A stretch of DNA of 64,000 nucleotides from positions 32,278 through 96,277 of the forward strand of contig UQYI01000007.1 of assembly GCA_900545265.1 (NCBI GenBank), in the 5' to 3' direction. Shown one piece after another: positions 13,257-30,720 of the stretch (within the stretch, counting starts at the first letter, position 1; the number at the start of each line of letters is the position of its first letter). This stretch comes from an uncultured Eubacteriales bacterium (GTDB taxonomy: Bacteria; Bacillota; Clostridia; Christensenellales; CAG-138). Made by a program: the position numbers and the translations under genes. The notes under the pieces are model-generated. The model did not search any database. It saw nothing but the letters and a program-made list of their open reading frames with translations, and was not told the DNA's origin.

Positions 13257-14675
13257 TTATCGGAAATCCACGGTGACCGTATTGATGTCCGTATCCATGG
13301 TCCAATCCGAGCGTACGCTCCATGTCAGTTTTTCCGGATAGGAAAGAGCCTTGGCCAAAGCTTCGGTATTCTTGCGCATGGGCCCCAGCAGCTTTTGCAG
13401 GGCGGCTGTCCGACCGGGTTCAAGGTCGTCTCCCACATTTTCAAACGCTTCCTGCGCCTGCAGCAGGCTGTCTTCCAAAGCGGCCTGCAAAGAACGGGTC
13501 TCTTCCGGCAAATCCGCCTGTTCTCTGGAAAATACCAGCACCTTGGCTCCGTTGCGCAGGTATTTCAGCGCCCGGAACCCCGTTTTTTTCAGCCACCGGG
13601 CATACTCATAAGAGACCCTGCTCTGAGGTTTCACCTGAAGGCCGAAAAGTGTTTCTATCAGCTCCGTCCGCCCGGATTGATCCAAAAACATAAAATTCCA
13701 GTCCGCCGCAGAACGGATCTCACCGGGCATGGTATACATGCCGATGGTCTCTGTATCCAGCCGGGCGGCAAAGTTCATGAGCGCCACCTGCTGCTGCAGG
13801 GTCAGATTGGTATATACCCCCTTCTGCAAGGTGCGCATCAGTGCCGGGATTTTGCTCAGCGTCCCTTCCTTTTTCAGCTGCTCAAACAGAGCCAGCAGCA
13901 TACGTTTGCAGCGGTTCATGCGGCCCTTGTCTCCCAATTCCCCGGTGGCATTTTTTCTGGCCCGCATATAGTCGCTGATGCCCTCGCCGTCCAGATGCTG
14001 CATACCCTTCTTATACCTGCGGCCGCTGCTGCCGGTATACTGCATATCCATATCAAAATCCACACCGCCCAGCAGATCACCGATCTGAGCCACCTGATCC
14101 ACATCAATGGCACAGTAATACTCTACCGGAATCCCTCCCAGCATCCACTCCGCCGCCTGGCAAACCTGTCGGAATCCCGCCTCGGTTTTGCCGCCGCCAT
14201 AATTGAGTATACCGTTGAGCTTGTAAAATCCGTCTACCCCTTCCATATTCACAAAAGTATCCCGAGGCAGGGAGAGCAGATCCACCTTTTTCTCCTGGAA
14301 GTTCACCGCTACCAGGATCAGCGCATCCGTATGGCAGTCTGCCGTGGGACCGTAACTTTCCAATACGCCGGCTTCTTTATCGATCCCCATAAGCAGAATG
14401 TTGACCAATGCGGGCGTTTCCTCTTCAGCAGCCCGGGCGGTCGGCGCCGGTGTGGAAGGCAAATCCGGATCCTCATCCGCCGCAGCAGACGTAGGCGTTG
14501 CTTTCCGTGCGGAAATATGAAACAGGGATTCCGGCCGGTTCAGCGTTTGATGCAGGCAGGCTCCCAGAAAAGCGCCCGCCACCAGCAATCCCGTCAGCAA
14601 GAATATCCACAGAGTCCTTTTTTCGTTTTTCTTTTTATTATCGTTTCCCTGGGAAGAGACCGGCTCCTTTTCCAT
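13257..14675 (-). CDS. LCP (LytR-CpsA-Psr) family protein with C-terminal extension
   Basis: TM anchor. ILLMGID...TDALILVAV...LLSLPRDT LCP core. AAAGGAG RBS before the ATG at 14675. Confidence 0.85.
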   Translation of the reverse strand: MEKEPVSSQGNDNKKKNEKRTLWIFLLTGLLVAGAFLGACLHQTLNRPESLFHISARKATPTSAAADEDPDLPSTPAPTARAAEEETPALVNILLMGIDKEAGVLESYGPTADCHTDALILVAVNFQEKKVDLLSLPRDTFVNMEGVDGFYKLNGILNYGGGKTEAGFRQVCQAAEWMLGGIPVEYYCAIDVDQVAQIGDLLGGVDFDMDMQYTGSSGRRYKKGMQHLDGEGISDYMRARKNATGELGDKGRMNRCKRMLLALFEQLKKEGTLSKIPALMRTLQKGVYTNLTLQQQVALMNFAARLDTETIGMYTMPGEIRSAADWNFMFLDQSGRTELIETLFGLQVKPQSRVSYEYARWLKKTGFRALKYLRNGAKVLVFSREQADLPEETRSLQAALEDSLLQAQEAFENVGDDLEPGRTAALQKLLGPMRKNTEALAKALSYPEKLTWSVRSDWTMDTDINTVTVDFR

Positions 14676-15034
14676 GGAAAATGCTCCTTTCGTTTTCGGC
14701 AGTACCGTATGGTATAGTGTGTCCCGGGTAGTCCGTTCCATACCTTACTACATTGTCCATGCAGGGTCTGCTTTTGATTTTATGGAGTATACCATATCTC
14801 TGCAAACGGATTGCAAACTTTTCTTGACCAAGGTGCAACATTTACACGGGAAAAGCAATCTCATAAAGCCATAACCGCCCTCTCCTTGCTTTTATGCTCC
14901 GTTTTATTCGCCGTTATTCATGGTCTTATCCTGGCCGTATTCCGATGGTGCCTTCAGATCTGCTGCATATTCTTTCCTGCACAAGTTTCATTTTCTCCCC
15001 CACTTCCTGTAAAAATGTTTATTTCAGCAAGAAA

Positions 15035-15098: not shown

Positions 15099-15127
15099 TT
15101 GCCAGCAGTCAGGCAGATGGTTAAAAT
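15099..15127 (+). promoter_or_regulatory. Candidate promoter of the 15-30 kb cluster
   Basis: TTGCCA - 17 nt - TAAAAT, about 80 nt upstream of the first gene. Confidence 0.3.
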
Positions 15128-15205
15128 GTGTATATATTCCGTGGCAGGGATATAATTTTGGCCGTACTTATCTTGTGCCAAAGCAAAAAAACAGGAGGAA
15201 TTCAC

Positions 15206-16573
15206 ATGAAAAAGACTTGGCTTGCAATGCTTCTGGTTGTTGTGATGCTCTTCTCCCTGGTTGGCTGCTCCAATGAACAGGCCGATCAGAAGAGTGAACC
15301 CACCGCTGAACCCGTTGCAGAAGTCACCGAAGCCCCCACTGAGGCTCCTACCGAAGCGCCTACCGAAGCCCCCACGCCGGAACCCGTACAGGGCGTAAAG
15401 AAAGTCACCGTTCTGAACACTCTGGTCAAGGATCTTACTCCCGCCAAGGGCGAAGAGACCCGTTTCAACGCTTTCTGGCTTCCCTCCTACAATATTGGGG
15501 AGATCGCCGAAAAGAACTTCTACTTCATGCCCGAAGCCACTGATGTGGTGGCGGTGGTAGCCTATACCGACGGTTATACCGATGACGGCACCGATACCTA
15601 TGAGACTCTGGCAGCCAAAGGTCTGAGTCTCAAGTATACCGACGCCAAGGGCAACGAATATGATGTATTCACCGGCCCCACCCAGAAAAAGGACAACATG
15701 CCCCAGTTCATGGGCTATTTCACTGTAGGCCACGTCTGCGCCCTGTTCATGCAGCCCGACGGCTGGAACGTTAAGGAGCTTTTTGATGAGATCGCCATGG
15801 CTCAGGCCGATGCTTATGACTTTATCTGTGCCGACGGCTATTCCGAGACCATCCAGGCCGCCGATCTGGAAAAGGTGAGCATCTTTGATAAGGACGGTTC
15901 CATTGACGCTACCTCCATCGCTTACCCCGACTACACGCTCCAGAACATCCGCTATATCGTACCCACCGGCCTCACCAAGGAAAGCACTCCCGGTGAGGGG
16001 ATCCAGCAGATCGTTGTCATGCCCAATGCAGAAGGCATACTGGATACCGAAGCTCCTTACACCCTGAACTTCGGCGGCACCATTTATGAAGCCTATGCCG
16101 TGACCGACGTCATGGATAAGGCCGGCATCGCCTCTGATACCTGCAAGGCCATCTCCTGGAAGGACGGCTTCGAGTATGAGTACGATATGGAAGCTTTCAA
16201 AGCCTCTTACATCTGCCTGAACAACAAGAAGGGCAACGATGCCTTTACCTGCGGTCAGAAGCAGGCCTACAACGCCCTTTGCAAGAGTGCCGGCTACTAC
16301 GTCTTTGACGCTGACGCTCTGGTATACGTACCCTCTGTGGAATCTCTCCCCGATGGTTACACCGTAGCCGACCTGTTCAAGGCCATCGGCATGCAGGAAG
16401 CCGCCTCTTACAACTTCATCTGCGCTGACGGTTACAAGGAAGAGATCTCCGCCGACGAGCTGGCCAATGTGAAGCTGTTCATCAATGCTGCCGGTGACGG
16501 TGTGGATGCTACCTCCATCGCCTATCCCGATCAGAGCCTGATGAATATCCTTACCATCGAGCCTGCCGCATAA
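15206..16573 (+). CDS. Repeat-containing lipoprotein (unknown function)
   Basis: Lipobox LVGC, (TEAP)4 linker. Two ~65-aa internal repeats (YDFICADGYSETIQAADL..DATSIAYPD / YNFICADGYKEEISADEL..DATSIAYPD). Confidence 0.7.
   Translation: MKKTWLAMLLVVVMLFSLVGCSNEQADQKSEPTAEPVAEVTEAPTEAPTEAPTEAPTPEPVQGVKKVTVLNTLVKDLTPAKGEETRFNAFWLPSYNIGEIAEKNFYFMPEATDVVAVVAYTDGYTDDGTDTYETLAAKGLSLKYTDAKGNEYDVFTGPTQKKDNMPQFMGYFTVGHVCALFMQPDGWNVKELFDEIAMAQADAYDFICADGYSETIQAADLEKVSIFDKDGSIDATSIAYPDYTLQNIRYIVPTGLTKESTPGEGIQQIVVMPNAEGILDTEAPYTLNFGGTIYEAYAVTDVMDKAGIASDTCKAISWKDGFEYEYDMEAFKASYICLNNKKGNDAFTCGQKQAYNALCKSAGYYVFDADALVYVPSVESLPDGYTVADLFKAIGMQEAASYNFICADGYKEEISADELANVKLFINAAGDGVDATSIAYPDQSLMNILTIEPAA
15326..15373 (+). 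repeat. 4 x 12-nt in-frame tandem repeat encoding (TEAP)4
   Basis: acc gaa gcc ccc-type units read directly from the sequence. Confidence 0.9.
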
Positions 16574-16620: not shown

Positions 16621-16801
16621 TTGCATACTCCCTTCAAAGAAGAAAAACTCCCCTGTTTTCCGCTGAATCCGGCAAGAAAAAATGAGAAAATATAGATTCC
16701 CGGAAATCGGAGGAGTATACTTGTACATAGAACAGGTTGTCCGTTTTTCAACGGACAGATTGTTGCTCATTTTATCTTATAAGGAACCGGAGGATGTCAT
16801 T

Positions 16802-18616
16802 GTGAAAAGAACGCTCTCTCTTTGTCTGGCCCTGCTGATGGCTTTGACCCTTCTGGCTGGCTGCCAGAAGCAGCAGACTGCCGAAACGCCCAAAGAACCT
16901 TCTGCCACCGAGGCTCTCACCCAGGCAACCGCCGAACCCGTCCCCACGGAAGAGCCCATTAAGGGTGCTTATGAAGGAGACGATTACGGCACCGGCGCTG
17001 TTGGTGAATTTGGCGCTACCGCCTGCGCCGACCCCATTGCCGCCCAGATCGGCGTGGACATTCTGAAAGCCGGCGGCAACGCTGTGGACGCAGCCGTAGC
17101 CATGATCTATGCCGTTGGGCTTCTGGAGCCCGCTGCCTCCGGCATCGGCGGTGCAGGCCAGATGCTTATCTACCTGAAGGAGCAGGATCGCTACCTGGTG
17201 CTGGAATACATGACGCAGGCCCCCGGCGCTGCCGTGGCCGGTGAGATCAGCACCGATACCTCCTCCAATCCCCCCTCTCCCGAATCCATCGCCATCCCCG
17301 GTGTGGTGCACGGCACCATGACCGCTTTGGAAAAGTACGGCACCATGACTCCGGCTCAGGTGCTTCAGCCGGTCATCGATCTGGCCCGCAACGGTTTCAC
17401 TCTGCCGGAGCGCTGGAACACCAATCTGGAAGGCCGCTATGCCAACCTTTCCGCTTACCCCTATACCATGGGCATCTATACCGATGACGGCTTCTTCTAC
17501 AGCCATGGCCAGACCATCTATAATAAGGACCTGGCCGACACACTGGAGCTCATCGCCAACGGCGGCAAGGAAGCTTTCTACAACAGCGACTTCACCCAGA
17601 AGATGGTGGATTATATCCAGAGCATCGGTGGTCTGCTTACCCGGGAGGACTTCGCTCAGTACGAAACCAAAGAGCGGGAAGCCATCTCCACCACCTATCG
17701 GGGCAAGAAGGTCTATACCGTAGGCGGTCCCTCCAATGGTGGCACCGCCCTGCTGGAGATGCTGAACATCATGGAGAATTTCGACATGGCCGCTCTGGGT
17801 CACGACAGTATGGAGGCCGTTAAGGTCACCGCTGACGCCTACGCCATGGCCTGCATGGACGGCGTAGCCTTCATGGCCGACCCTGACTACTATAACCTGC
17901 CTACCGAAGAAATGATCAGCAAGGAATACGCTGCAGAGCGGGCCTCCAAGATCGATCTGACCACCTATCTCAAGAACGCCAAGAAGGGCAACCTTACCGT
18001 GACCCTTTCCGAGACCGGTGAAAAGGTAGATGCCGACACTACTCCCGATCAGGGCGGCACCACCCACCTGTCCGTTATGGATTCCTATGGCAACGTAGTT
18101 TCCACCACCAACACCAACGGTATCAACTTTGGCTCCGCCGTAGCCGTCCCCGGCACGGGCTTTGTATTCAGCGCTCATCTGGGCAATCTGAACAACTCCG
18201 CTACCGCCAAGGTCAACAAGCTCATGCCTTATATCCGGGTGCGCACCACCATCTGCCCCTCCATCGTGGCCGATGAAAACGGTGTTCCCTTCATGGCCGT
18301 AGGTTCCCCCGGCAACTGGGCGCTGGTTTCCGCCGTGGCCATCACCATCTCCAACGTCATTGATTATGACATGAACGTGGCGCAGGCCATCAATGCCCCC
18401 CGTATCTACCGGGATAAGAACAGCAAGCAGCTTTCCATCGAATCCCGCTATGGGGAGGAAGTGCTCCAGAAACTCACAGACCTGGGCTTTGAGATCAGCG
18501 ATGAAGGCGAGCTGGGTGCGCACGTAGGCTGCGTAGCCGCCATTTACCATGGGGCTGACGGCAAATTCTATGCCGGCGCAGATTACCGCCGTCTCTATGG
18601 CGCTGCCGCCTATTGA
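16802..18616 (+). CDS. ggt: Gamma-glutamyltransferase family lipoprotein (GGT/CapD-like)
   Basis: GTG start 8 nt after GGAGGA. Lipobox LLAGC. Autoprocessing/nucleophile context QGGTTHLSVMD, GSPGG-type C-terminal motifs. Confidence 0.9.
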   Translation: MKRTLSLCLALLMALTLLAGCQKQQTAETPKEPSATEALTQATAEPVPTEEPIKGAYEGDDYGTGAVGEFGATACADPIAAQIGVDILKAGGNAVDAAVAMIYAVGLLEPAASGIGGAGQMLIYLKEQDRYLVLEYMTQAPGAAVAGEISTDTSSNPPSPESIAIPGVVHGTMTALEKYGTMTPAQVLQPVIDLARNGFTLPERWNTNLEGRYANLSAYPYTMGIYTDDGFFYSHGQTIYNKDLADTLELIANGGKEAFYNSDFTQKMVDYIQSIGGLLTREDFAQYETKEREAISTTYRGKKVYTVGGPSNGGTALLEMLNIMENFDMAALGHDSMEAVKVTADAYAMACMDGVAFMADPDYYNLPTEEMISKEYAAERASKIDLTTYLKNAKKGNLTVTLSETGEKVDADTTPDQGGTTHLSVMDSYGNVVSTTNTNGINFGSAVAVPGTGFVFSAHLGNLNNSATAKVNKLMPYIRVRTTICPSIVADENGVPFMAVGSPGNWALVSAVAITISNVIDYDMNVAQAINAPRIYRDKNSKQLSIESRYGEEVLQKLTDLGFEISDEGELGAHVGCVAAIYHGADGKFYAGADYRRLYGAAAY

Positions 18617-18677
18617 TCCTCATTAACAAGCTGCGGCGGCAGGAAGCCTGCTTTCTGCCGCCGGGAAGGATTTTATT

Positions 18678-19961
18678 ATGCGTGAAGAATACATTCTCGC
18701 CATCGTAATGCTGGGACTGGTGGCTCTTGTGCTGGCCTTCACCAAAAACGACCGCAAATGGTGGACGCCTGCCCTGCTTCTGGCTGCCGTAGCAGGAAGT
18801 CTGGCGGCAGGCATGGGACTCCGGTTCCGGGAGATCGTAGAAGGTTCCTTTGGTTTTCTGGATGCTCTGCTGCCGGTAGTCATGGCTGCTTTGTTTTTGC
18901 GGATGCTCAAGGATAACGGGGCATGGGGTCTGCTTTTTGATAAACTTGCAGGCCGCAGCCCTCTTGGCGCCAGCTTCGGACTGCTGTTTTATCTGGCTCT
19001 GCCCGGGATGCTCACCGGATGCGCCAGCATGGGCGTGCTTATGAGCGCCGTCCCTGTCTATGACTATCTGCAAAAGAGAAACGTCCCCAAGTCCAAAGCC
19101 GTATCCTTTATTGCCGCCGGGTCTTTTCTGGGCATGATGCTGCCGCCCAACTGCCTGCCGGCCATCATTGCGGCCAACGGCGCTGGCAGTGTGCTTCCTA
19201 CCCCCTATGTTGGCTTCTTCCTGCCTCTGCTGGTGCTGAGCGCGCCGGCCTTCCTCCTCTGCGGTCTGCTCTTTGCCGGACTGTTTAAGGACGAACCCGC
19301 CGCCGCTCCTGCCGCTGAAAAAAAGGCCTCTTTGCTGCCGCTGTTCCCGCTGGGGCTGGTGCTCCTGCTGGTGCTGATAGACGGACTTCTGGGTTCCTAT
19401 TTGTATATCGGCGGCCAGACCCTTGTCTTTCTGATCGGGTTGGTGCTGGCAGCTCTGCTCCCCGCCGTAAAGCGGAATGCCAAAGGTGTCCTTTCCAGCC
19501 TGATGCAGGGCATTACAGACTGTGCCCTGCCTGTAGCAGCGGTATTTGCCCTTGGCTCTTTTATTGAAGTCAGCTCCATGAACGGCATCCGGGGCGTTTA
19601 CAGCCTGCTGATCCTGCCCTATTCCACTACGGCGGTGATGCTGGCGCTTATGGCTCTGAGTCTGCTGGTTGGCTTCTTCTTCTCCGCTCCCCTCCCGGCT
19701 TTCTTTATTGCCTACGCCGTATTTCCCATCGGCTGGCTGGCCAACACCGTTACCGTAACGGGCTGTGCCGCCGCCATCGGGCTGGCCTGGCTCATTGCCT
19801 GTCGGGGCGGGCTGGTATCTCTGGTAAGAGATGAGCTTTCTCTTCCGGAAGTATCCTACAAAGAAACAGTCCCCGGTCTGCTTCTGGCGGGACTGCCCGT
19901 GCTGCTTATGGCAGTGCTGCTGGTAGTCTTTGGAGACAGCATGACGGGTCTTATCCTGTAA
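18678..19961 (+). CDS. DctM-like (IT superfamily) permease, copy A
   Basis: 427-aa polytopic protein. GMLTGCASMGVLMSAVP and GMMLPPNCLPAIIAANG resemble DctM hairpin motifs. Paralog of 22122-23396. Confidence 0.65.
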   Translation: MREEYILAIVMLGLVALVLAFTKNDRKWWTPALLLAAVAGSLAAGMGLRFREIVEGSFGFLDALLPVVMAALFLRMLKDNGAWGLLFDKLAGRSPLGASFGLLFYLALPGMLTGCASMGVLMSAVPVYDYLQKRNVPKSKAVSFIAAGSFLGMMLPPNCLPAIIAANGAGSVLPTPYVGFFLPLLVLSAPAFLLCGLLFAGLFKDEPAAAPAAEKKASLLPLFPLGLVLLLVLIDGLLGSYLYIGGQTLVFLIGLVLAALLPAVKRNAKGVLSSLMQGITDCALPVAAVFALGSFIEVSSMNGIRGVYSLLILPYSTTAVMLALMALSLLVGFFFSAPLPAFFIAYAVFPIGWLANTVTVTGCAAAIGLAWLIACRGGLVSLVRDELSLPEVSYKETVPGLLLAGLPVLLMAVLLVVFGDSMTGLIL

Positions 19962-19974
19962 GGAGGGCAGCCAT

Positions 19975-20121
19975 ATGATTTCTATCGTCTATTATGCCGT
20001 CATCTCGCTGCTGAGTCTGCTGCTGCTGGCTTCCATGCTGAAAAAGCGCCCCGTGTACGAGCTCATTTCTCTGGCAGTGATCCTGGTGACCTTTGCCCTG
20101 CGGGCGCTGCACATCAAGTAA
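19975..20121 (+). CDS. 48-aa two-TM mini-protein, copy A (absent from ORF track)
   Basis: AGGAGGG RBS, ATG at 19975. MISIVYYAVISLLSLLLLASMLKKRPVYELISLAVILVTFALRALHIK. Paralog at 23412-23561 in the same position. Confidence 0.6.
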   Translation: MISIVYYAVISLLSLLLLASMLKKRPVYELISLAVILVTFALRALHIK

Positions 20122-20131
20122 GGAGGCTGCC

Positions 20132-21274
20132 ATGAAGAAATACACCCATATCTGGAAAAACCTTCTGGTACTGGCGCTGGCGCTGGTCTTTGCCGTCCCG
20201 GCCTCCATAGACTTTCTGGCCATGCACAGGCAGGAAGAAGTGGTTCAGACCTCTCAGCTGACGGAAGTCAAAATGCTTTCGGAATACTGCGAAGGACTTA
20301 AAGGCTCCGACCTGGATACGGAGATCTATATGTTTGACAGCGGCGTTCCCGGCGGCACCTTTCTGGTGCTGGGGGGCACCCATCCCAACGAATCCGCCGG
20401 TATGATGTCTGCCATCGCCATGATCGAAAACATTCAGGTCACGGCAGGCAAGGTCTATATTATGCCCTGGACCAACAAGAGCGGATTTACCCACACCTCC
20501 CCTCTGGACGGGATGCTGGACAGATTCTCCATCACCTTGGCGGATGGCTCCCAGCGAACCTTCCGCGTGGGCAACCGCCTGACCAATCCCGTAGACCAGT
20601 GGCCCGACCGGAACTTTTACGAAGGCTCCTCCGGCCGTAAGTTGGTAGGTACGGAAACGGCGGAGATCCGCAACGTCAACCGTCTGTACCCCGGCAATGA
20701 AAACGGCGTTCTCACCGAACGGGTATGCGCCGGGGTCAAGAACCTTATCAACGAAGAAAACGTGAGCATCGTCATGGACATGCACGAAGGCTCCCCGGAA
20801 TTTCTGTATCTGGATACCACCATGGCCCATGAACGGGCTTTGGACGTAGCCTCCCTCATGGCCATGGACATGAGCCTGGAAGGGCTGAACATGAAGGCAG
20901 AACTTTCCGGCATGACCTCTTACGGCCTGTCCCACCGGAGTCTGGGAGACAATACCAGCGCTCTGATGACCCTCATGGAGACCTACAACCCCTCCATGGG
21001 GCCGCTTCACGGAAAGATGGATGATGACCTCATTGTCAACGGAAACGAACCCAATTATTACGAAGCGCACAAGCAGGGCTACATCTACTACAACGTGAAG
21101 GAAAACGGCATCCCTCTTATCGAACGGATCGCCCGCCACATCACCTGTATCTCCCTGCTCAAGGATGCCTATAACACCTACCATGCCGATGCGCCCATTG
21201 AATTTACCTGCATCGGCAGCTACAGCGACATGATGGATCTGGGTCTTGAAAACATTTTTAAGCCCCTTTCCTGA
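20132..21274 (+). CDS. Signal-anchored AstE/AspA-family (M14-like) zinc hydrolase, copy A
   Basis: N-terminal TM. Zn motifs GGTHPNE and DMHEGS. NVNRLYPG motif typical of succinylglutamate desuccinylase/aspartoacylase family. Confidence 0.75.
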   Translation: MKKYTHIWKNLLVLALALVFAVPASIDFLAMHRQEEVVQTSQLTEVKMLSEYCEGLKGSDLDTEIYMFDSGVPGGTFLVLGGTHPNESAGMMSAIAMIENIQVTAGKVYIMPWTNKSGFTHTSPLDGMLDRFSITLADGSQRTFRVGNRLTNPVDQWPDRNFYEGSSGRKLVGTETAEIRNVNRLYPGNENGVLTERVCAGVKNLINEENVSIVMDMHEGSPEFLYLDTTMAHERALDVASLMAMDMSLEGLNMKAELSGMTSYGLSHRSLGDNTSALMTLMETYNPSMGPLHGKMDDDLIVNGNEPNYYEAHKQGYIYYNVKENGIPLIERIARHITCISLLKDAYNTYHADAPIEFTCIGSYSDMMDLGLENIFKPLS

Positions 21275-21308
21275 TAAAACGATCAAAAACTACGGAGGAT
21301 TTTACACT

Positions 21309-22028
21309 ATGAAAAAAATGATCGCCCTTATGATGGCCCTTATGTTCGTTCTGGCACTGGCTGCCTGCTCCAACGGCACCAAGGAACCCGAAGCTGCCCC
21401 CACGGCCGCCGCAGAGAACAACTCCTCTTCCGGCTATACCTCCTCTCAGGGGACTATTGACGGCTATGACCCCAACGAAAAGTCCGATTTTGTTATGAAC
21501 ACCAGCGAAAGCACCCGCACCTTTAACATGGGCGAAGCGGATGCTTCCCAGTTCAGCACTCCCATTCTGGTGACCTCCTTCGGTCAGAGCGCCGATGCCT
21601 CCATGATGGACGCCATCATGAAGAAGGCCGGTGTTGCCGACTATACCTTCAATGCTCTGGCCACCGCTGAGGATGTGAAGAACTACAAGACCGTTATCAT
21701 CGTCTGCGGCGCCAGCTCCAAGGGTCTGGGTGCTGCCGGTATCTCTGAGAGCGACGAAACCGCCCGTGCCGAAGCCATCATGACCGCTATCGGCGAAAGC
21801 AAGCCCGCCGTGATCATGTGCCATCTGGGCGGCGCTATCCGTCGTGGTGCGTTGTCTGATAAGCTTACCGACATGGTGTTGGATGTAGCCAACTACCTGG
21901 TGGTGGTGGAAGACGCCAACTATGACTATAAGTTCTCCAAGTTTGCCGAAGAAAAGAACGTGCCCCTCACCTTCCTGTATGCCATTGCAGACGGTGTGAG
22001 CGTGTTCTCCGGCCTGTTCAGCAAATAA
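21309..22028 (+). CDS. Lipoprotein of unknown family
   Basis: GGAGGA RBS, lipobox LAAC, Ser/Thr-rich linker. I recognise no motif. Confidence 0.7.
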   Translation: MKKMIALMMALMFVLALAACSNGTKEPEAAPTAAAENNSSSGYTSSQGTIDGYDPNEKSDFVMNTSESTRTFNMGEADASQFSTPILVTSFGQSADASMMDAIMKKAGVADYTFNALATAEDVKNYKTVIIVCGASSKGLGAAGISESDETARAEAIMTAIGESKPAVIMCHLGGAIRRGALSDKLTDMVLDVANYLVVVEDANYDYKFSKFAEEKNVPLTFLYAIADGVSVFSGLFSK

Positions 22029-22047
22029 GCCTGTCCCATGACGCTCC

Positions 22048-22100
22048 GGGGCGCCGGCCGCTTTCCCCTTACAAACGGCCGGCACCCCTTTCCCTTTTTA
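22048..22100 (+). terminator. Terminator-like hairpin between cassette A and B
   Basis: 13-bp stem GGGGCGCCGGCCG/CGGCCGGCACCCC (1 mismatch) followed by TTTCCCTTTTT. Confidence 0.4.
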
Positions 22101-22121
22101 TGAAACAGTGAGGAAAAGATT

Positions 22122-23396
22122 TTGAGTACGGAATTGCTGGTCCTGCTGGTGATGCTGGGGGTGTTCCTGCTGGGGAACCTGCTGTGCAAGCTCCCGGTAA
22201 GCCTGTCTATGATCCTGGGCGCCATTGCGGGTGCTCTGGTAGCCGGGGAGGGCATCCCCGTCCGGCATCTTTTTGAGGGATGCTTTACCTATATCGACAC
22301 CATCCTGATCATTTCCACCGCCATGTTGTTCATGACGGCCATTCAGCGCTCCGGGGCTCTGGAAGCCCTTAACGCACTGATCGTAACCAAGTTTTACAAA
22401 GCCCCGGCTCTGATGCTCATCCTTCTGATGTTCATCATCATGTTTCCGGGCATGATCACCGGCTCCTCCACCGCTGCGGTGCTTTCCGCCGGTGCCATTG
22501 TGGCCCCCATCCTGCTGAAAATCGGCATTCCCAAAGAAAAAGCCGGTGCCATTCTGGCCATCGGCTCCATCATGGGTATGGCAGCCCCACCGGTCAATAT
22601 TCCTGCCATGCTCATTGCCGGCGGCGTGGACATGCCTTATATCGGCTTTGAAGGCCCTCTGTTTTTGCTGACCATCCCCTGCGCCATCTTTACGGTTCTG
22701 TTCCTTGGGCTTAAATACTGCAAGGATCTGGATATCGAGGAGCTGAAAAAAGAACTGGATATGGAGATCGGCAAGCAATACGGCTTCAAACTCTATATCC
22801 CCATTCTGCTGCTGGTGGTGCTGCTGGTCCTCACCCGGGCTTTGCCCCAGTTTATGCCCCAGTTGGGCACACCCCTTATTTTCCTGATCTGCGCCGTAGT
22901 GGCTCTGTTCACCGGTAAACGCTTCAATGCCTGGCATGCCGGCCTGGAGGCCATGGATACCACCATCCCCGTGCTGGCAAAGCTTATGGGCGTGGGGATG
23001 TTCATCCAGATCCTGACTTTGACCGGCGCCCGGGGCTACATCGTGGTCAGCTGCCTGGGTCTGGGTATTGTCCTGCTGTATGCGGCGGTGTGCATTGTCA
23101 TGCCTGCCTTCGGGGCCGTCAGCTCTTACGGGGCCGCCAGCGTCATGGGCGTACCCTTCCTGCTTGTGCTGCTGGATACCGGGGACCAGATTACCCTGGC
23201 TGCTGCCCTTTCCTTTATCTGCTGCCTGGGCGATCTCATGCCGCCTACGGCTCTGGCCGGGAACTATGCCGCTCAGATTGTTGGGCTCAAATACAAGCCC
23301 GTACTCAAGCACTGCATCATTCCTTTCCTGGTGTGCATTGCACTGGGTCTTGCCTGTCTGCTGCTGTCCGGGTATCTGGGCTTTTTGACGGCATAA
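22122..23396 (+). CDS. DctM-like (IT superfamily) permease, copy B
   Basis: TTG start after GAGGAAAAG. ITGSSTAAVLSAGAIVAPIL and GMAAPPVNIPAMLIAGG closely resemble DctM motifs. Confidence 0.65.
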   Translation: MSTELLVLLVMLGVFLLGNLLCKLPVSLSMILGAIAGALVAGEGIPVRHLFEGCFTYIDTILIISTAMLFMTAIQRSGALEALNALIVTKFYKAPALMLILLMFIIMFPGMITGSSTAAVLSAGAIVAPILLKIGIPKEKAGAILAIGSIMGMAAPPVNIPAMLIAGGVDMPYIGFEGPLFLLTIPCAIFTVLFLGLKYCKDLDIEELKKELDMEIGKQYGFKLYIPILLLVVLLVLTRALPQFMPQLGTPLIFLICAVVALFTGKRFNAWHAGLEAMDTTIPVLAKLMGVGMFIQILTLTGARGYIVVSCLGLGIVLLYAAVCIVMPAFGAVSSYGAASVMGVPFLLVLLDTGDQITLAAALSFICCLGDLMPPTALAGNYAAQIVGLKYKPVLKHCIIPFLVCIALGLACLLLSGYLGFLTA

Positions 23397-23411
23397 GCAA
23401 AGGAGGAAGTT

Positions 23412-23561
23412 ATGATTCTCAAATATATCTATCTGGCTATTATCGCCCTTTTGCTGGTGTTTATCGTAGCCAATATGTTCCGCAAGGATAAGCTTTTGTA
23501 CCAGATCGATGCCGCTTTGGTGCTCATCCCTCTGGTGCTGCGGCTGCTGCTGATCAAGTGA
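23412..23561 (+). CDS. 49-aa two-TM mini-protein, copy B (absent from ORF track)
   Basis: AGGAGGAAG RBS. MILKYIYLAIIALLLVFIVANMFRKDKLLYQIDAALVLIPLVLRLLLIK. Shares the M(L/F)(K/R)K loop and L.IK end with copy A. Confidence 0.6.
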   Translation: MILKYIYLAIIALLLVFIVANMFRKDKLLYQIDAALVLIPLVLRLLLIK

Positions 23562-23571
23562 GGTGCTCATC

Positions 23572-24711
23572 ATGAAAAAAAAGATCCCTACCCGCATCCT
23601 CACCGCCTCCCTTCTGTGCCTGCTGGCCGTAGGCGCCATTGTGTACCTGGCTTTGCTGTTCACCTCCATGTGGCAGGACGAGCCCATTTACCCCGGCCCC
23701 GGCGTAACGGAAAAGCAGATGCTTTCCGACTACAATCCGGAGCTTAAGGGCACCAATGGCGACACGGAGATCTATGTGCTGGATTCCGGCGTTCCCGGCG
23801 CCTCCATTCTGGTGCTGGGAGGCACCCATCCAAACGAACCTTCCGGCGTGGTGGCAGCCGTTGCCCTCATTGAAACCTGCACCCCAAAAACCGGCGTCAT
23901 GTATGTCATCCCCCGGGCCAACCACAGTGCTTTTACCTGCACGGATCCCCAGGAAGCGGCTCCCATGTTTTATACCGTTCAGACCGCCGGCGGGGAGCGG
24001 ACCTTCCGCTTTGGCTCCCGGGCTACCAATCCCATCGACCAGTGGCCGGATTCTGATGTATATGTGCACCGCACCAGCGGTCAGACCCTTTCCGGCAGTG
24101 AGACCCGCAATCTGAACCGGGCTTATCCCGGCAGCAACAGCGGCACCTTCACTGAGCGGGTGACCTATGGTATTACGGAGTTCATCAAGCAGAACAACGT
24201 ATCCATCACCGTGGATCTCCACGAAGCTTCCCCGGAATATCCTACCATCAATGCCATCGTAGCCCATCAGGACGCCATTGAGCTGGCCAGCTGGGCCTCC
24301 ATGGATATGCAGATGGAAGGCATGACCATCAGCATCGAAGCCTCTCCCACCAACCTTCACGGTCTTTCCCACCGGGAACTGGGGGATTACACCGATACGC
24401 TGGCCGTGCTTATGGAAACGGCCAATGCCTCTCAGGGGCGCCTTCGGGGCCGCACCGATGCGGATCTGGTGGTCACCGGGCAGGATCACTACTACTATCT
24501 GGCCGGTAAATACGGCGCTCTGTATGTGGATTTCCCGGAAACCGGCATTCCCCTGGATGTGCGGGTCGCCCGTCATATCTGCGGTGTGGAACAGCTGTGC
24601 AACGCCTATAACGAACTGAGCGGCACGGATACCCTGGATCTGGGAGATCTTCCCTCCTATTCCGAGATCATTGCCAATGGTGTAGGCGCTTATCTGAACT
24701 CTGGAAACTAA
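23572..24711 (+). CDS. Signal-anchored AstE/AspA-family (M14-like) zinc hydrolase, copy B
   Basis: N-terminal TM, GGTHPNE, NLNRAYPG, DLHEAS. By eye it aligns along its full length with copy A. Confidence 0.75.
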   Translation: MKKKIPTRILTASLLCLLAVGAIVYLALLFTSMWQDEPIYPGPGVTEKQMLSDYNPELKGTNGDTEIYVLDSGVPGASILVLGGTHPNEPSGVVAAVALIETCTPKTGVMYVIPRANHSAFTCTDPQEAAPMFYTVQTAGGERTFRFGSRATNPIDQWPDSDVYVHRTSGQTLSGSETRNLNRAYPGSNSGTFTERVTYGITEFIKQNNVSITVDLHEASPEYPTINAIVAHQDAIELASWASMDMQMEGMTISIEASPTNLHGLSHRELGDYTDTLAVLMETANASQGRLRGRTDADLVVTGQDHYYYLAGKYGALYVDFPETGIPLDVRVARHICGVEQLCNAYNELSGTDTLDLGDLPSYSEIIANGVGAYLNSGN

Positions 24712-24731
24712 AGCCAGGCAAGGTGCTCTGC

Positions 24732-25676
24732 GTGAAAAGACTGTGTGTACTGACTCTGGGGCTGCTGGTGCTTCTATGCGCCTGTACCCCCGGAACATCC
24801 GAAAAGAAAGCGGAAGCCGCCCCCACGGCGGCTCCGCTGCAAACCCTTTCTCCCGATTCCGACGGTTCCCCGGAAGAATCTGCGCCTGCAACGGTGACCA
24901 TCAACGGCGAGACCTTTGCCTATGACGGCTTCCGGGTGCTGGAGCCGGAATGTGATCTGGATATCTACTCCATGGAGCCGAAGGACTTTACAGACGATTT
25001 TAACACCGTGTATGAGTGCCAGCGGGAAAGCTATCAGCTGACACCCGAAACGGAAACGGAAACCACCGTAGTCAGGATCACCGGGCAGGAACCGGGCCCA
25101 ACGGTCTACATTGCCGCCGGTATCCACGGGGATGAACGGGCTGCCTGGTTTGCCGGGCTCATGCTGCAAAAGATCACCATCCGGGCCGGCACGCTGTATG
25201 TCCTTTCTCCCGCAAATGCCAAGGGCGCAAAGGTCGTCAGCCGCATGGTAGGGGAAGAAGATCCCAACCGCTGCTTTCCCGGTCAGGAAGACGGCACCGA
25301 GGCCCAGCGCCTGTGCTATGCCATTTTCCATGACATTGAAGAAAAGGCTCCCGAGCAGCTGTTGGATCTGCACGAAGCCATCGTCTATAAAGAGGGCAGG
25401 GATTTTCTTGGCAGCACGTTGATCTATTCCTCACTGGATGGTATGCAGGATATGTTTTTTGACCTGCTCTTTGCCACTCAGGCAGGAGAAGTAACCTCCA
25501 CTTCCTTCGGCTATAACGGCCCTGGCCCTGCCGGAAGTATGAACCGCACCGTTACCGACCAGCTGCACATTCCTTCCATCACCGTGGAGACCTTCCGGGG
25601 CTTCCCCATAGAGCGGCGGGTGAAGGATCAGCTGAAAGTGGCCGCCTATGTGCTGCGGTATAAAGGGATGCTATGA
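24732..25676 (+). CDS. AstE/AspA- or MpaA-like M14 zinc hydrolase lipoprotein
   Basis: GTG start (24732 or 24723). Signal MKRLCVLTLGLLVLLCAC. AAGIHGDE, DPNRCFPG, LDLHEA motifs. Confidence 0.7.
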   Translation: MKRLCVLTLGLLVLLCACTPGTSEKKAEAAPTAAPLQTLSPDSDGSPEESAPATVTINGETFAYDGFRVLEPECDLDIYSMEPKDFTDDFNTVYECQRESYQLTPETETETTVVRITGQEPGPTVYIAAGIHGDERAAWFAGLMLQKITIRAGTLYVLSPANAKGAKVVSRMVGEEDPNRCFPGQEDGTEAQRLCYAIFHDIEEKAPEQLLDLHEAIVYKEGRDFLGSTLIYSSLDGMQDMFFDLLFATQAGEVTSTSFGYNGPGPAGSMNRTVTDQLHIPSITVETFRGFPIERRVKDQLKVAAYVLRYKGML

Positions 25677-26791
25677 CCATTGCCGGCCTGTTCATCTGCA
25701 TATTATGCCTGTTGTATCTCCTGTATCTGGGGGCAGAAAAGCTTCTTGCCCGCAGGTATAGGAGATCTTTGCTTCATGTGATCCAGGTAAACGGCATCCG
25801 GGGCAAATCCTCCACCGTCCGACTTGTTGATGCGGGCCTTCGTGCAGGAGGCTTTCGGGTGGTCAGCAAATCTACCGGCACTTTGCCCATGATACTGCAT
25901 ACCGACGGCCGGGAGGAGGAGATCCGCCGCCGGGCCCCGGCCAATATCCGGGAACAGCTCTCCCTGCTGGCTGCAGCGCATCGTGAGGGGGCTCAGATAG
26001 CCGTATGCGAATGCATGGCCATTTCTCCCGAGCTGCAGCGGGCCTCCCAGCAGATGCTTCAGGCGGATATCGCCCTGATCACCAACGTGCGGCTGGATCA
26101 TACGGATGTCATGGGCGCTACCCGAGAGGAAATTTGCGCTTCTCTGCTGCATATGGCCCCGGAAAAAGGACTGCTGATTACCGGAGAAGAGGATATGCTT
26201 CCCTTCATGCAGGCCGTCATGAAAAAAAGACAGGGCTGTGCAAAGCTGGCACTGCCCGATGCTGCCGGATACCCAGGTATTCCTGATTTTCCGGAAAATA
26301 TTGCACTGGCGCTGGCTGCCTGTGAAGCCGCTGGTGTTTCCCGGGCTGCCGCCCTGAAAGGGATGGAAAGTGTGCGCCGGGATCCCTATGCTTTTGAACG
26401 GCTGCAATGGGGGCATACGGTCTTTCTCAACGCCTTTTCTGCCAATGATGTGCAATCCACCCGAACGCTGTATGAAAAGAGCGGAGAAAAAGCCCCCCTT
26501 ATCCTGATCTTGAACAACCGCAAAGACCGTCCTGCCCGCGCACTGGAAATGAGTCGTCTGGCCCGGCTGCTGCCCGTCCGTGAAATATGGATTCTGGGAG
26601 AGCAGAAGGGCCTGATGCAGCGGCTGCTTCGGCGGCAAAATCCCTCCGTTCCTCTGCGCCGCTTTGACCGGGCAGAGGATATCCCTCTGGATTTTACGGA
26701 ACCCCGGGTGCTGCTGGGAGCCGGAAATATCAAAGGGCAGGGAGAAGCCCTGACTCTGCGCATACGCCGCCGGGCAAAGGAGGTAGAATGA
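25673..26791 (+). CDS. pgsB: Poly-gamma-glutamate synthase PgsB/CapB (Mur-ligase-type amide ligase)
   Basis: N-terminal TM, VNGIRGKSSTVRL P-loop, ECMAISPE, ITNVRLDHTDVMG. Collinear with Bacillus CapB from memory. ATGA overlap with the upstream gene. Confidence 0.9.
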   Translation: MTIAGLFICILCLLYLLYLGAEKLLARRYRRSLLHVIQVNGIRGKSSTVRLVDAGLRAGGFRVVSKSTGTLPMILHTDGREEEIRRRAPANIREQLSLLAAAHREGAQIAVCECMAISPELQRASQQMLQADIALITNVRLDHTDVMGATREEICASLLHMAPEKGLLITGEEDMLPFMQAVMKKRQGCAKLALPDAAGYPGIPDFPENIALALAACEAAGVSRAAALKGMESVRRDPYAFERLQWGHTVFLNAFSANDVQSTRTLYEKSGEKAPLILILNNRKDRPARALEMSRLARLLPVREIWILGEQKGLMQRLLRRQNPSVPLRRFDRAEDIPLDFTEPRVLLGAGNIKGQGEALTLRIRRRAKEVE

Positions 26792-27210
26792 GAGAAGAAA
26801 TCCTGGTGCTGGGGATACTTTGCAGCATCCTGTTTTATGAATGTACCCGTCTTTCCCCCGGAGGGCTGATCGTACCGGGGTATTTTGCCCTTTGCCTGCA
26901 ATCTCCCCTGCGCATTGGGTATACGCTTGGACTGGCTCTGCTCACATGGGGGGTCATGGCTCTGTTGTCTCAGGTGCTGATCCTGTATGGAAAGCGCCGG
27001 TTTGCTCTGTCTATCGTACTTTCCTATCTTTTGAACATGGCAGTTGTTGCCCTGGGCATACTGCCCTTTGAAATCAGCGTTATCGGGCTTATCATTCCCG
27101 GAATACTGGTGCGGGATATGGAAAAGCAGGGACCTGTTAAAACCATTTTGTCTCTTGGAATAGTCACCGGAGTATTGGGGCTTGTCATGCTCCTTATGGG
27201 GGCGCTGTGA
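26788..27210 (+). CDS. pgsC: Poly-gamma-glutamate synthase membrane subunit PgsC/CapC
   Basis: 140-aa, 4-TM. GGLIVPGYFAL, LYGKRRFA, IIPGILV match CapC hallmarks. ATGA overlap. Confidence 0.9.
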   Translation: MREEILVLGILCSILFYECTRLSPGGLIVPGYFALCLQSPLRIGYTLGLALLTWGVMALLSQVLILYGKRRFALSIVLSYLLNMAVVALGILPFEISVIGLIIPGILVRDMEKQGPVKTILSLGIVTGVLGLVMLLMGAL

Positions 27211-28298
27211 AGCGGCGGGAACTGGGCAAGGCCCTGTGTCTGCTGCTTACGATGCTGCTTCTTTTGGCAGGCGGGTTGATCAGCTACGAAAATGCTTTCA
27301 TGGAAAAACGGCCCGAGTATGACCGGATGTGTGATGCCGCCCGGCGCATGGAAGCCTGTATGGCCGAAATCAAAGCAGAAAGACTCCGCCGCGGCCTGCC
27401 GGTAGACGAAACGGAAGACATCTTTTCCACAGGCCTGCTGGGCACCGGGCATACAGCCATCACCACCACATTGGGAAATCTGGAGGCCAAGCGGACCTCC
27501 TGCCAGCGGGACATGGGCGCTCTGGTGCTGCGGCTGCTGCTGGAAGCCGGGGTCAAGGCCGGGGATCGGGTAGGCATATGCGCTTCCGGTTCCTTCCCCG
27601 CCCTGAACATTGCCCTTTTTTGCGCACTGGATGCGCTGGAGGCACAGCCGGCAGCCATTATATCTATCGGCGCCTCCACGTATGGGGCCAACCTGCCGGA
27701 ATTTACTGCCCCGGAGATGCTGTATCATCTGTATGAAAAAGGGCTTGTTTCCACCGCACCCCTGTATGCCACTCTGGGGGGAGACGGAGATATGGGGCAG
27801 AATATGGGGGCCGCTTTCTTTGAAGAAGAACAGGCAGTGCTGGAGCAGACTCTGACCCGGCTGGAAACAGCAGGCATTCCTCTGGTTTGTATACCCGACC
27901 GGCAGGAAAATCTTGTCTGGCGGGAGCAGGTATACGGCGATATCGACTGCTTTGTCAGCATAGGGGGGCAATCCATGGCCATGGGGGCTTATGAAGAAGG
28001 CTATGCCCTTGGGCAGGGAGTCCTGCGCCGGCAGCGGGTCAAAAACGGTGAAAGCTTCCTCCTTGGTCACTATCTGAATCTGGATATTCCTGTCACAGTG
28101 CTGCTGAACGTCCGCACTCTGTGTGCGGAATACGGCCTGCCCTTTGATCCGATTGCTCTTGCGCCCATCGGGGAAAATGCTTTATACTATAAAAAAACCT
28201 GTCCTAAGGTTCCGGTGCTGCTGGCACTGGGCCTTGGAGCAGGTATGCTGCTGCTGTACAGGAGATGGTTCGTATGGAAGGGCAGAAACCAAGAATAA
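27207..28298 (+). CDS. Bitopic protein in the PgsA position (likely 'poly-gamma-glutamate system protein' family)
   Basis: GTGA overlap with pgsC. N- and C-terminal TM. TTTLGNLEAKRTS segment recalls the PgsBC-associated family. Needs an HMM check. Confidence 0.55.
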   Translation: MKRRELGKALCLLLTMLLLLAGGLISYENAFMEKRPEYDRMCDAARRMEACMAEIKAERLRRGLPVDETEDIFSTGLLGTGHTAITTTLGNLEAKRTSCQRDMGALVLRLLLEAGVKAGDRVGICASGSFPALNIALFCALDALEAQPAAIISIGASTYGANLPEFTAPEMLYHLYEKGLVSTAPLYATLGGDGDMGQNMGAAFFEEEQAVLEQTLTRLETAGIPLVCIPDRQENLVWREQVYGDIDCFVSIGGQSMAMGAYEEGYALGQGVLRRQRVKNGESFLLGHYLNLDIPVTVLLNVRTLCAEYGLPFDPIALAPIGENALYYKKTCPKVPVLLALGLGAGMLLLYRRWFVWKGRNQE

Positions 28299-29701
28299 GA
28301 TACTCTTCCCTGCTTTTGGGCTGTGCGCTGCTGATACTGGGGCTGTTGATGCCCCTGCTGCTGAACGTAGGCAACATGGAAGTGTATACCTCCATGTACA
28401 AGGCATTCTCCCGGGATGAAAAAATATATGTGCTGGCAGCGGCTTTTCAGCTGCTGCTGCTGAACATTCTCCGAGGATACCCCAATTACCTGGGCGCTTT
28501 CTTTATTGCAGACAGTTTTTCCACCCTGACCCCCCGGCGCTACAAGAAGATCCTGCTGGGCTGCATGGTCTTTCCGCTGGTACTGCTGGAATACCGGCTG
28601 ATCCACCTGCTGTATGGCATAAACTATGCTTTTGGCGTACCTGCACTGCTGACCATTGCCATGATGCTGGTGCTGGCCATGGTGGATCTGACTCTTGTCT
28701 CCAATATAAAAAAGTGCTTTACGGTGTTCTTCTTTCATGGAGCCATCCAATGCCTGGATGTAATGCCCTCCCTCAGCGGCAGCTTCTTTGGTCAGGGAGA
28801 GACCACCCGTGAGATCCGTGCTGCCAGCGCCTTTTTGCAGGCGGATACCTTTTTGAATCTGTCTCTTCTATGCGTTTTCATTCTTCTGGCCCTGAGCGCC
28901 TGCCTGTATACGGTGCTGGTGGCGGATGAGAACCACATCCGTCTGGTAAGCCGCCAGAAGGAACAGCGGGAGCATGAGCTTATGATCGCCCGCATGAGCG
29001 AGGTGGAAAACCGCACCTACCGGGAGGTCTATCATGTAGCCCACGACCTGAAGACCCCCCTCACCTCCATCCAGACCATTATCGGCATCCTGGCGCTGGA
29101 AGAAAAGGAACCCCGGCGGCTCCAGCTGCTGCACGGGGTGGAAACCTCTGTAGAGCACATGAGCCGAATGATCACCGAGCTTCTGGATGAAACCCACGTC
29201 AGCCTGACCACCGCCGGAGATATCCTGCGGGAGGTCATGGCACAGGTATCCATTGCTCCCTATGTGCACTGCATTGAGCTTAAACAGCCTGCGGAAGATC
29301 TGTATGTCAATGCCAATCGCATCCGTTTTGACCGGATGCTCATCAATCTGCTGGAAAATGCCTATTATGCCCTGACCGATCATAAAAAAGGCGTCATTCG
29401 GCTGGAAGCGGATCGGGTATACCTGCAGGGAAACGGGAAAATACTTTCCCCGTCGGAGGTCAAAAACGCCGGAACGCCCTATGTACGCTTTCTGGTCAGC
29501 GACAATGGCCGGGGCATGGACGAAAAGACTGTGGCTTCCATCTTCCAGCGGGGCTTTTCCACCCGAGGCTCCAGCGGCCTGGGGCTGGTCTTTGTAAAAG
29601 AAGTTGTAGAGACCCACGGGGGGCTTGTACAGGTGGACAGCCACCCGCAAACCGGCACCACCTTTACCATTCTGATACCGGAGGAAGAAAGCGATGAGTG
29701 A
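28274..29701 (+). CDS. Multi-TM sensor histidine kinase
   Basis: About 6 TM N-terminal region. H-box VAHDLKTPLTSIQ, N-box LLENAYYAL, DNGRGMD, GSSGLGL. Confidence 0.85.
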   Translation: MEGQKPRIRYSSLLLGCALLILGLLMPLLLNVGNMEVYTSMYKAFSRDEKIYVLAAAFQLLLLNILRGYPNYLGAFFIADSFSTLTPRRYKKILLGCMVFPLVLLEYRLIHLLYGINYAFGVPALLTIAMMLVLAMVDLTLVSNIKKCFTVFFFHGAIQCLDVMPSLSGSFFGQGETTREIRAASAFLQADTFLNLSLLCVFILLALSACLYTVLVADENHIRLVSRQKEQREHELMIARMSEVENRTYREVYHVAHDLKTPLTSIQTIIGILALEEKEPRRLQLLHGVETSVEHMSRMITELLDETHVSLTTAGDILREVMAQVSIAPYVHCIELKQPAEDLYVNANRIRFDRMLINLLENAYYALTDHKKGVIRLEADRVYLQGNGKILSPSEVKNAGTPYVRFLVSDNGRGMDEKTVASIFQRGFSTRGSSGLGLVFVKEVVETHGGLVQVDSHPQTGTTFTILIPEEESDE

Positions 29702-30683: not shown

Positions 30684-30720
30684 AAAAAAGCCGGGATATC
30701 GCTTCCCGGCTTCCTGTTTG
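30684..30720. terminator. Bidirectional terminator (cluster end / DUF1015)
   Basis: AAGCCGGGA-loop-TCCCGGCTT flanked by A6 and a T-rich tract. Confidence 0.65.

Follow-up and report, generated by a model that had tools for sequence, protein, structure and literature searches.

What does a bacterium do with two copies of a small gene cassette, each encoding a permease, a protein of fewer than 50 residues and a hydrolase held in the membrane by its N-terminus? The question is raised by a 64,000-nucleotide stretch (hereafter, the window) from an uncultured Eubacteriales bacterium of the Christensenellales lineage CAG-138 (assembly GCA_900545265.1, contig UQYI01000007.1, positions 32,278 to 96,277 of the forward strand). 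An earlier note, drawn from the letters of this DNA alone, had described cassette A at 18678-21274 and cassette B at 22122-24711 and read both as a DctM-like permease, a mini-protein and an AstE/AspA-type zinc hydrolase, in that order; the open reading frames bear out these coordinates and this gene order. The description of the cassettes as tandem holds for their number and equal gene order, but they do not adjoin directly, as a DUF6305 gene (21309-22028) separates them. In this study, we place both cassettes within a larger conserved module, located here among genes for the synthesis of poly-gamma-glutamate (PGA), and we propose, with moderate confidence, that this module degrades a gamma-glutamyl polymer extracellularly and takes up what is released, the two cassettes being its paralogous cores.

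The plus strand between approximately 15.2 and 30.3 kb carries 15 tightly packed genes, with gaps of 11-109 nt and several overlaps. A promoter-like site was found at 15099-15127 and a terminator-like hairpin at 30688-30712, and no convincing internal terminator was detected between them. The 15 genes form a single PGA operon with both cassettes inside it. Their order is a lipoprotein, a gamma-glutamyltransferase (GGT), cassette A, the DUF6305 lipoprotein, cassette B, a third AstE/AspA-family lipoprotein, PgsB, PgsC, a TIGR04332 protein, a histidine kinase and a response regulator. Every soluble component of the surface module carries an extracytoplasmic signal, either a lipobox or an N-terminal anchor.

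The conservation of this arrangement was surveyed with one genome per species, which gave 561 confirmed loci in gut and rumen Clostridia, Tissierellia, Spirochaetota and other groups; relatives of the cassette B hydrolase number more than 4000 in the database. The best 80 of the 561 loci were mapped with the window proteins. In these, a permease gene lies directly upstream of the hydrolase gene in all 111 pairs, and an ATG-started open reading frame of 44-52 aa stands between the two in 107, while at least two of the four other pairs show a tblastn match to the mini-protein. The tiny conserved membrane protein noticed earlier between permease and hydrolase is therefore real, being found in at least 107 of 111 pairs, and the triad is conserved elsewhere, across phyla and with strict gene linkage. 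The conserved unit is, moreover, larger than the triad: it comprises GGT (48 of the 49 loci with enough upstream sequence), DUF6305 (73 of 74 related loci), permease, mini-protein and hydrolase, usually with the third AstE/AspA lipoprotein (54 of 69). The genes pgsB, pgsC and that of TIGR04332 are linked to it in 19 of the 36 loci with enough flanking sequence, in several phyla, placed downstream in the same orientation or upstream in the divergent one. This setting inside or adjoining a PGA synthase operon, which consists of PgsB, PgsC, TIGR04332 and a two-component system, is a context that the earlier note had missed.

The two anchored hydrolases, hydA (20132-21274) and hydB (23572-24711), both on the plus strand, are clear paralogues (43% identity over 375 aa, E 2e-105), and the alignment contains all the motifs by which they had been matched by eye. 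Their placement in the AstE/AspA family also stands. Both exceed the threshold of 25 bits for AstE_AspA_cat (PF24827), albeit marginally and over the central segment only (26.2 bits for hydA and 32.5 for hydB), and a profile search of the PDB retrieved the AstE/AspA-family structures 2qj8, 3cdx, 6twm and 3na6, DoeB among them. An AlphaFold2 model of hydB (pLDDT 85.6, pTM 0.88), in which residues 7-32 form an N-terminal helix, gave 3na6, 2qj8 and DoeB 6twm as the top Foldseek matches (probability 1.0, TM-scores 0.36-0.50). These were followed by M14 carboxypeptidases, Csd4 and MpaA, the latter two, also at probability 1.0, being enzymes that cut gamma-D-Glu bonds. In a viral library, the phage poly-gamma-glutamate hydrolase appeared as a weak fold match at rank 9 (E 8.6e-4); a PghP-type identity for hydA and hydB was rejected, since the match is distant.

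The active site that defines AstE, AspA and DoeB is retained. Among 124 homologues, H86, E89, H217, E218, E282, R179, N180, R183, H267 and R268 reach a conservation of 97% or more in both hydrolase clades, and hydA keeps the H-x-x-E...H zinc ligands, the NxNR motif and the MET-E glutamate. By analogy with the solved enzymes, H86, E89 and H217 are predicted to bind zinc, E282 to be the catalytic glutamate, and N180 and R183 to form the carboxylate clamp. Fold, zinc ligands, carboxylate-binding motif and catalytic glutamate are thus shared with the family, whereas the overall sequence identity to solved members is only 15-19%, and in the hydrolases studied here an insertion of about 55 residues separates the first zinc motif from the NR motif, and a helical region is added at the C-terminus. 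They also differ in their predicted location. AstE, AspA and DoeB are soluble cytoplasmic proteins that act on small N-acyl amino acids, while hydA and hydB each have one hydrophobic stretch near the N-terminus (residues 4-32 and 5-35, respectively) preceded by KK or KKK, and their neighbours are lipoproteins. Hydropathy and charge distribution agree with the topology suggested before, that of membrane-anchored hydrolases facing outward. Ribosome-binding sites support the assigned starts: the hydA start is most likely the ATG at 20132, after GGAGG, rather than the TTG at 20093, and that of hydB the ATG at 23572, after a Shine-Dalgarno-like GAGGTG.

The permeases, permA (18678-19961) and permB (22122-23396), both on the plus strand, have diverged further than the hydrolases. 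Pairwise alignment gave 31% identity over 288 aa (E 3e-24), and the profiles of the two families align end to end over 402 columns (hhalign probability 100%, E 5e-57), so that the proposed paralogy is sound. Membership of the DctM family (PF06808, gathering threshold 23.8 bits) is direct for permB, which scores 49.9 bits and spans profile positions 4-408 of 413, and indirect for permA, which reaches only 18.1 bits but is homologous to the permB family. Relatives of permB are named 'TRAP transporter large permease subunit' by NCBI (TRAP, tripartite ATP-independent periplasmic). The sole solved relative of permB found by sequence is the isethionate TRAP DctMQ; the hairpin motifs align, and the two permease motifs remarked on earlier line up with its ISGS and IPPSN segments.

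The first-repeat motifs GMLTG and LPPNCLPA are retained in permA, which lacks the second motif of permB, GDLMPPTALAG. Strong conservation of transporter-type motifs is common to both permease families, and the motifs peculiar to the permA family are strongly conserved as well, which marks permA as a constrained but remodelled paralogue. It also evolves faster: compared with a 68%-identical relative of the window (locus L001), permB is 76% identical and permA 47%, the hydrolases being at 68% and 66%. The AT skew is strongly negative (-0.19) exactly across both permease genes (18000-20000 and 22000-24000), as expected where hydrophobic residues are encoded by T-rich codons. At 424-427 aa, the permeases leave no room for a fused Q domain. 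A natural fusion of permease with mini-protein or hydrolase, which would have been evidence for a physical complex, was also sought among the relatives and rejected, as the sole over-long permease (P0343, 517 aa) ends in a low-complexity stretch that looks like the product of a frameshift and contains no mini-protein domain.

Between permease and hydrolase lie miniA (48 aa, 19975-20121) and miniB (49 aa, 23412-23561), both on the plus strand; the ATG of miniA is preceded by GGAGG at 7 nt and that of miniB by AGGAGG. Each has two hydrophobic segments with a basic loop between them (KKRP in miniA), the architecture is identical in length, and a C-terminal LRxLxIK motif is common to both. The earlier note had taken all three components as paralogous by eye, which applies to hydrolases and permeases, while the mini-proteins are related only at the profile level. 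BLASTP produced no alignment between miniA and miniB. With family profiles built from 110 orthologues, for which the composition bias of membrane helices is a caveat, miniA is matched over its whole length by a B-type profile made from other genomes (E 6e-9), and the A and B families align with an hhalign probability of 97.9% (E 5e-13). The kinship is credible despite the composition bias, given the end-to-end alignment and the terminal LRxLxIK motif in both. miniB matches its family consensus (mltyiYlaIvalvlvlivvnlfrkkklffQidAAlVlvpLlLRlLlIk) at E 2e-25, and an orthologous miniA reading frame occurs in every two-cassette locus. Neither protein matches a family in Pfam or NCBIfam. Hydrophobic proteins of about 30-55 aa encoded beside a membrane machine are familiar from AcrZ with AcrB, KdpF with KdpABC, and CapE/PgsE; the mini-proteins differ from these in their two hydrophobic segments and C-terminal LRxLxIK, and in that they track the permease-hydrolase pair and not PgsBC.

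When did the cassettes double? Among the 80 mapped loci, two cassettes were counted in 40 and one in 22, the other 18 being truncated. Two-cassette loci occur in Clostridiales, Oscillospiraceae, Lachnospiraceae, Sphaerochaetaceae and some Tissierellia, and the single-cassette form, which is the more widespread, in Clostridium tetanomorphum DSM 4474, C. lundense DSM 17049, Paratissierella segnis BX21, metagenome-assembled genomes (MAGs) of Treponema/Rectinema, and Tissierellia. The hydrolase tree (midpoint-rooted neighbour-joining, without an outgroup) places the upstream-cassette copies in one clade and the downstream-cassette and single-cassette copies in the other, which fits one old duplication. 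At least 40 species-level genomes keep both copies, with intact catalytic residues and clade-specific substitutions, so the old duplication suspected from the divergence of the two cassettes is supported and has been retained. Positions fixed differently by clade include Q171 in B versus R169 in A, as well as E269 versus S270 and R290 versus P291, two substitutions that adjoin conserved active-site motifs.

Two further patterns were observed in the cassette histories. In six loci from Tissierella, Christensenellales and Lawsonibacter (L041, L043, L048, L052, L056 and L057), the upstream cassette is far more divergent, with 42-48% identity to the window cassette A for the hydrolase and 30-36% for the permease; these upstream cassettes form a separate sub-clade and their mini-proteins are longer (50-51 aa). 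In a Halanaerobiales MAG (L076, 8434-16032), the order is one unit, GGT, DUF6305, a second unit, the third AstE-type gene and pgsBC, and both units are B-type, which suggests an independent duplication.

The conserved companions of the cassettes were examined as well. The GGT lipoprotein (16682-18616, plus strand, lipobox LLAGC) matches PF01019 with 420 bits and TIGR00066 with 407 (cut-off 357.85). Its nearest solved structures are the E. coli and Bacillus GGTs, with CapD weaker, and a CapD-type identity was accordingly discarded in favour of an ordinary GGT. The DUF6305 protein, encoded on the plus strand between the cassettes, is a lipoprotein (lipobox LAAC) with 149.8 bits on PF19823. It has no match in the PDB by sequence, and its AlphaFold2 model (pLDDT 85) consists of a flavodoxin-like three-layer alpha/beta domain on a disordered tether of about 45 residues, with weak fold matches (TM-score <0.5) to type II dehydroquinase, SGNH acylhydrolases and flavodoxin. 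The invariant motifs TSxGQSxD, GxSxKGxGAAG and HxGGxxRRG could form a Ser/His-type or anion-binding site. At the level of the fold, the idea that DUF6305 substitutes for a binding protein was abandoned, as the model is a single domain and not two-lobed. The third AstE/AspA-family lipoprotein (24723-25676, plus strand) scores 49 bits on PF24827 and resembles hydB only in the NR..PG...DLHE segment; its orthologue in C. tetanomorphum weakly matches Peptidase_M99, the Csd4 family. With it, the operon has four surface hydrolases that may act on gamma-glutamyl bonds.

How could these parts work together? What follows on substrate, transport direction and a physical complex among the products is our inference from the features above. 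Under degradation of PGA outside the cell followed by import, the anchored hydrolases would remove glutamate or short gamma-Glu units from the C-terminal end of the polymer, and the GGT would trim from the amino end, as in Bacillus subtilis. The hydrolases seem well suited to this task because the C-terminal unit of PGA belongs chemically to the N-acyl-glutamates, the kind of compound on which AstE, AspA and DoeB act, and a substrate of this type is plausible for both hydA and hydB by analogy with those enzymes. The adjoining elevator-type, TRAP-like permease, which has no P or Q partner, would import the released carboxylate; as the permease invariably partners the hydrolase, uptake of the hydrolase product is the simplest reading of the pair. 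The mini-protein would be a dedicated permease subunit, either a scaffold extension in place of DctQ or a tether for the hydrolase anchor, again the simplest reading for a protein that is never separated from the permease-hydrolase pair. Co-transcription with PgsB, PgsC, TIGR04332 and the two-component system would allow the cell to make, trim and recycle its own polymer. The two cassettes may have diverged in substrate, and D- versus L-glutamate or monomer versus dipeptide are guesses in this respect; two specificities would be in keeping with the substitutions close to the active site and with the remodelling of the second repeat in permA.

This proposal can be compared with known PGA depolymerases. 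The PGA of B. subtilis is degraded extracellularly by PgdS, an endo-acting enzyme, and by GGT from the N-terminal side, and the phage enzyme PghP is a zinc enzyme related to carboxypeptidase A, with a similar fold (PMC4497714). GGT/CapD, PgdS and PghP share with our module the extracellular action, which is predicted for the latter, and the genetic link to a PGA synthase. In contrast, hydA and hydB are not homologues of PghP or PgdS by sequence, and they are coupled one-to-one to a permease, as no known PGA depolymerase is. Csd4/Pgp1 (M99) and MpaA (M14) resemble the hydrolases in their M14-like fold and act on gamma-glutamyl linkages, as proposed for hydA and hydB; they differ in that their substrates are peptidoglycan peptides and that neither a permease nor a mini-protein goes with them, and their sequence similarity to the hydrolases is very low (E 0.45).

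The comparison with TRAP transporters (DctPQM/SiaPQM, TC 2.A.56), whose large DctM subunit has 12 helices and whose transport is coupled to Na+ and strictly dependent on a binding protein, raises a further idea. In these systems, DctQ extends the DctM scaffold, and the M subunit accepts substrate solely from the P subunit (PMC9971032). Our triad shares with them a full-length DctM subunit (permB) and a small membrane protein encoded beside the large one. Two of the three structural components by which membership is judged are, however, missing: as the earlier note had remarked for DctQ and DctP, neither DctQ (PF04290) nor DctP or TAXI is recorded among the Pfam families of any gene within about 10 kb (L001, L004). 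In addition, the small partner has 48 aa, two predicted helices and no Pfam family and is encoded after the permease, not before it, and permA does not reach the Pfam threshold and is without the second PP motif. The anchored enzyme and the DUF6305 lipoprotein occupy the positions expected for a binding protein. The triad could thus represent a new, TRAP-derived type of uptake system, in which the mini-protein replaces DctQ, the anchored ecto-enzyme (possibly with DUF6305) replaces the binding protein, substrate is made at the mouth of the elevator and handed over, and the cassettes are stereo- or length-specific channels in the degradation of a gamma-glutamyl polymer; we put this forward tentatively and consider it somewhat unlikely. 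The individual parts belong to known superfamilies (DctM, AstE/AspA/M14-like, GGT and PgsBC), and their combined architecture is new in the literature searched: no description was found there of a module that joins a DctM-type permease, a two-helix microprotein and an anchored ecto-hydrolase to GGT and DUF6305, often with pgsBC-TIGR04332, and no paper was found that mentions DUF6305.

Several observations weigh against extracellular PGA degradation with import of the product. The GGT is of the ordinary type and not CapD-like, and the DUF6305 fold is not that of a binding protein, which leaves its role unexplained. Canonical TRAP permeases need P and Q (PMC9971032), neither of which is present here, and the mini-protein, with two predicted helices and a positive connecting loop, differs from DctQ, which has four helices and an N-in/C-in topology. 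The likeness of hydB to PghP is at the superfold level only, and our literature search found no paper on these hydrolase, permease and mini-protein subfamilies or on their biochemistry. Finally, pgsBC does not occur within 10 kb in 17 of the 36 well-flanked loci, including those of Lachnospiraceae, Sphaerochaeta and Treponema/Rectinema, so that a linked synthase is not needed and the substrate could be another gamma-glutamyl compound.

These 17 loci favour an account in which ecto-hydrolase and permease serve a general salvage of small gamma-glutamyl compounds, the link to pgsBC being secondary. Candidate substrates would be glutathione, gamma-glutamyl peptides, folyl-polyglutamates and peptidoglycan stem peptides with gamma-D-Glu-mDAP (mDAP, meso-diaminopimelate). 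A canonical GGT, over the TIGR00066 cut-off and nearer to the E. coli and Bacillus enzymes than to CapD, is in keeping with salvage, as are the fold matches to Csd4 and MpaA, which cleave gamma-D-Glu-mDAP, and the Peptidase_M99 match of the third hydrolase's orthologue in C. tetanomorphum. We nonetheless regard it as unlikely, because pgsB-pgsC-TIGR04332 adjoins roughly one locus in two, across several phyla and in two arrangements, a pattern that is hard to explain without a functional tie.

That tie might also be of another kind, and the synthase genes themselves have to be considered here. PgsB, the ligase subunit (25673-26791, plus strand), scores 269.5 bits on TIGR04012 (cut-off 222.7), and PgsC (26788-27210, plus strand) 102.1 bits on TIGR04011 (cut-off 96.45), with a match to PF14102. 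The place after PgsC, where Bacillus has PgsA, is occupied by the TIGR04332 'poly-gamma-glutamate system protein' (27207-28298, plus strand; 290.7 bits, cut-off 100), and the Pfam families recorded for the locus include none of the PgsA/CapA type. Both termini of the TIGR04332 protein carry hydrophobic segments. Could the cassettes then serve to make, export or anchor PGA, with permease and mini-protein moving or priming the polymer, the mini-protein as a CapE/PgsE-like factor, and the hydrolases and GGT sizing and attaching it? Bacillus PGA systems do contain a peptide of about 47-55 aa (CapE/PgsE) and an anchoring enzyme of the GGT family (CapD), and co-transcription with PgsB, PgsC and TIGR04332, the lack of PgsA in the locus and the flanking genes for LytR-CpsA-Psr (LCP)-family transferases would all suit such a role. 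It is, however, quite improbable in our judgement: the permease-mini-hydrolase unit occurs without pgsBC in many loci, and the mini-protein gene lies always between permease and hydrolase and, in the related loci, never beside pgsBC. DctM-type elevator carriers, moreover, move small solutes and are not known to move polymers. Furthermore, PgsBC alone is enough to make PGA in B. subtilis, without PgsA (PMC6029982).

The last two genes of the operon, both on the plus strand, encode a histidine kinase (28265-29701; HisKA and HATPase_c) and a response regulator (29694-30329; Response_reg, with a weak HTH_64 match and a DpiA/CitB-like helix-turn-helix). The N-terminal domain of the kinase is wholly embedded in the membrane, with four hydrophobic segments and no recognised sensor domain, and transporter-assisted sensing is a possibility for such a pair. 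That the permeases act mainly as co-sensors for this kinase, like DctA or DcuB for DcuS, and report glutamate or PGA status without bulk flux would agree with a kinase lacking a recognised extracytoplasmic sensor domain, a DpiA/CitB-type regulator and a pair that travels with the module in many loci, but it is highly improbable, as many other loci carry the module without any two-component system, transporter-type motifs are strongly conserved in both permease families, and so strict a coupling to the hydrolase suggests that the two are related as product and substrate.

What is understood of PGA derives almost entirely from Bacillus, and the module described here may bear on the making, trimming and reuse of PGA in anaerobes without PgsA. 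It also holds two components without a described function, DUF6305 and the mini-protein. Should extracellular degradation and import prove true, the hydrolases would constitute a new class of enzymes that degrade PGA, of interest for capsule removal and industrial PGA processing, and the module would be a likely route of glutamate uptake in glutamate-fermenting anaerobes. The permeases would then be natural DctM-type elevator transporters without P and Q, which bears on why TRAP transporters need these subunits. Cultured carriers exist in C. tetanomorphum DSM 4474, C. lundense DSM 17049 and P. segnis BX21, so these hypotheses are testable.

Some features of the surroundings complete the description of the locus. 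The first gene of the operon (15203-16573, plus strand) encodes a lipoprotein of 456 aa with the lipobox LVGC, which is kept upstream of GGT in most two-cassette loci. It has no Pfam family and no match in the PDB by sequence. The protein contains an internal tandem duplication, whose halves are 38% identical over 152 aa, and a linker rich in proline, threonine and glutamate with repeated TEAP units. Long antisense reading frames on the minus strand over the cassettes (22098-23687, of 529 aa, and 20114-21286) were dismissed as by-products of a G+C content of 55-57%, as it is the plus-strand genes that have homologues, ribosome-binding sites and conserved synteny. LCP-family glycopolymer transferase genes lie on both sides of the operon, one at 13257-14741 on the minus strand and a second at 19749-20792 of locus L004, also on the minus strand, which suggests that the operon is part of a wider region devoted to cell-envelope polymers.

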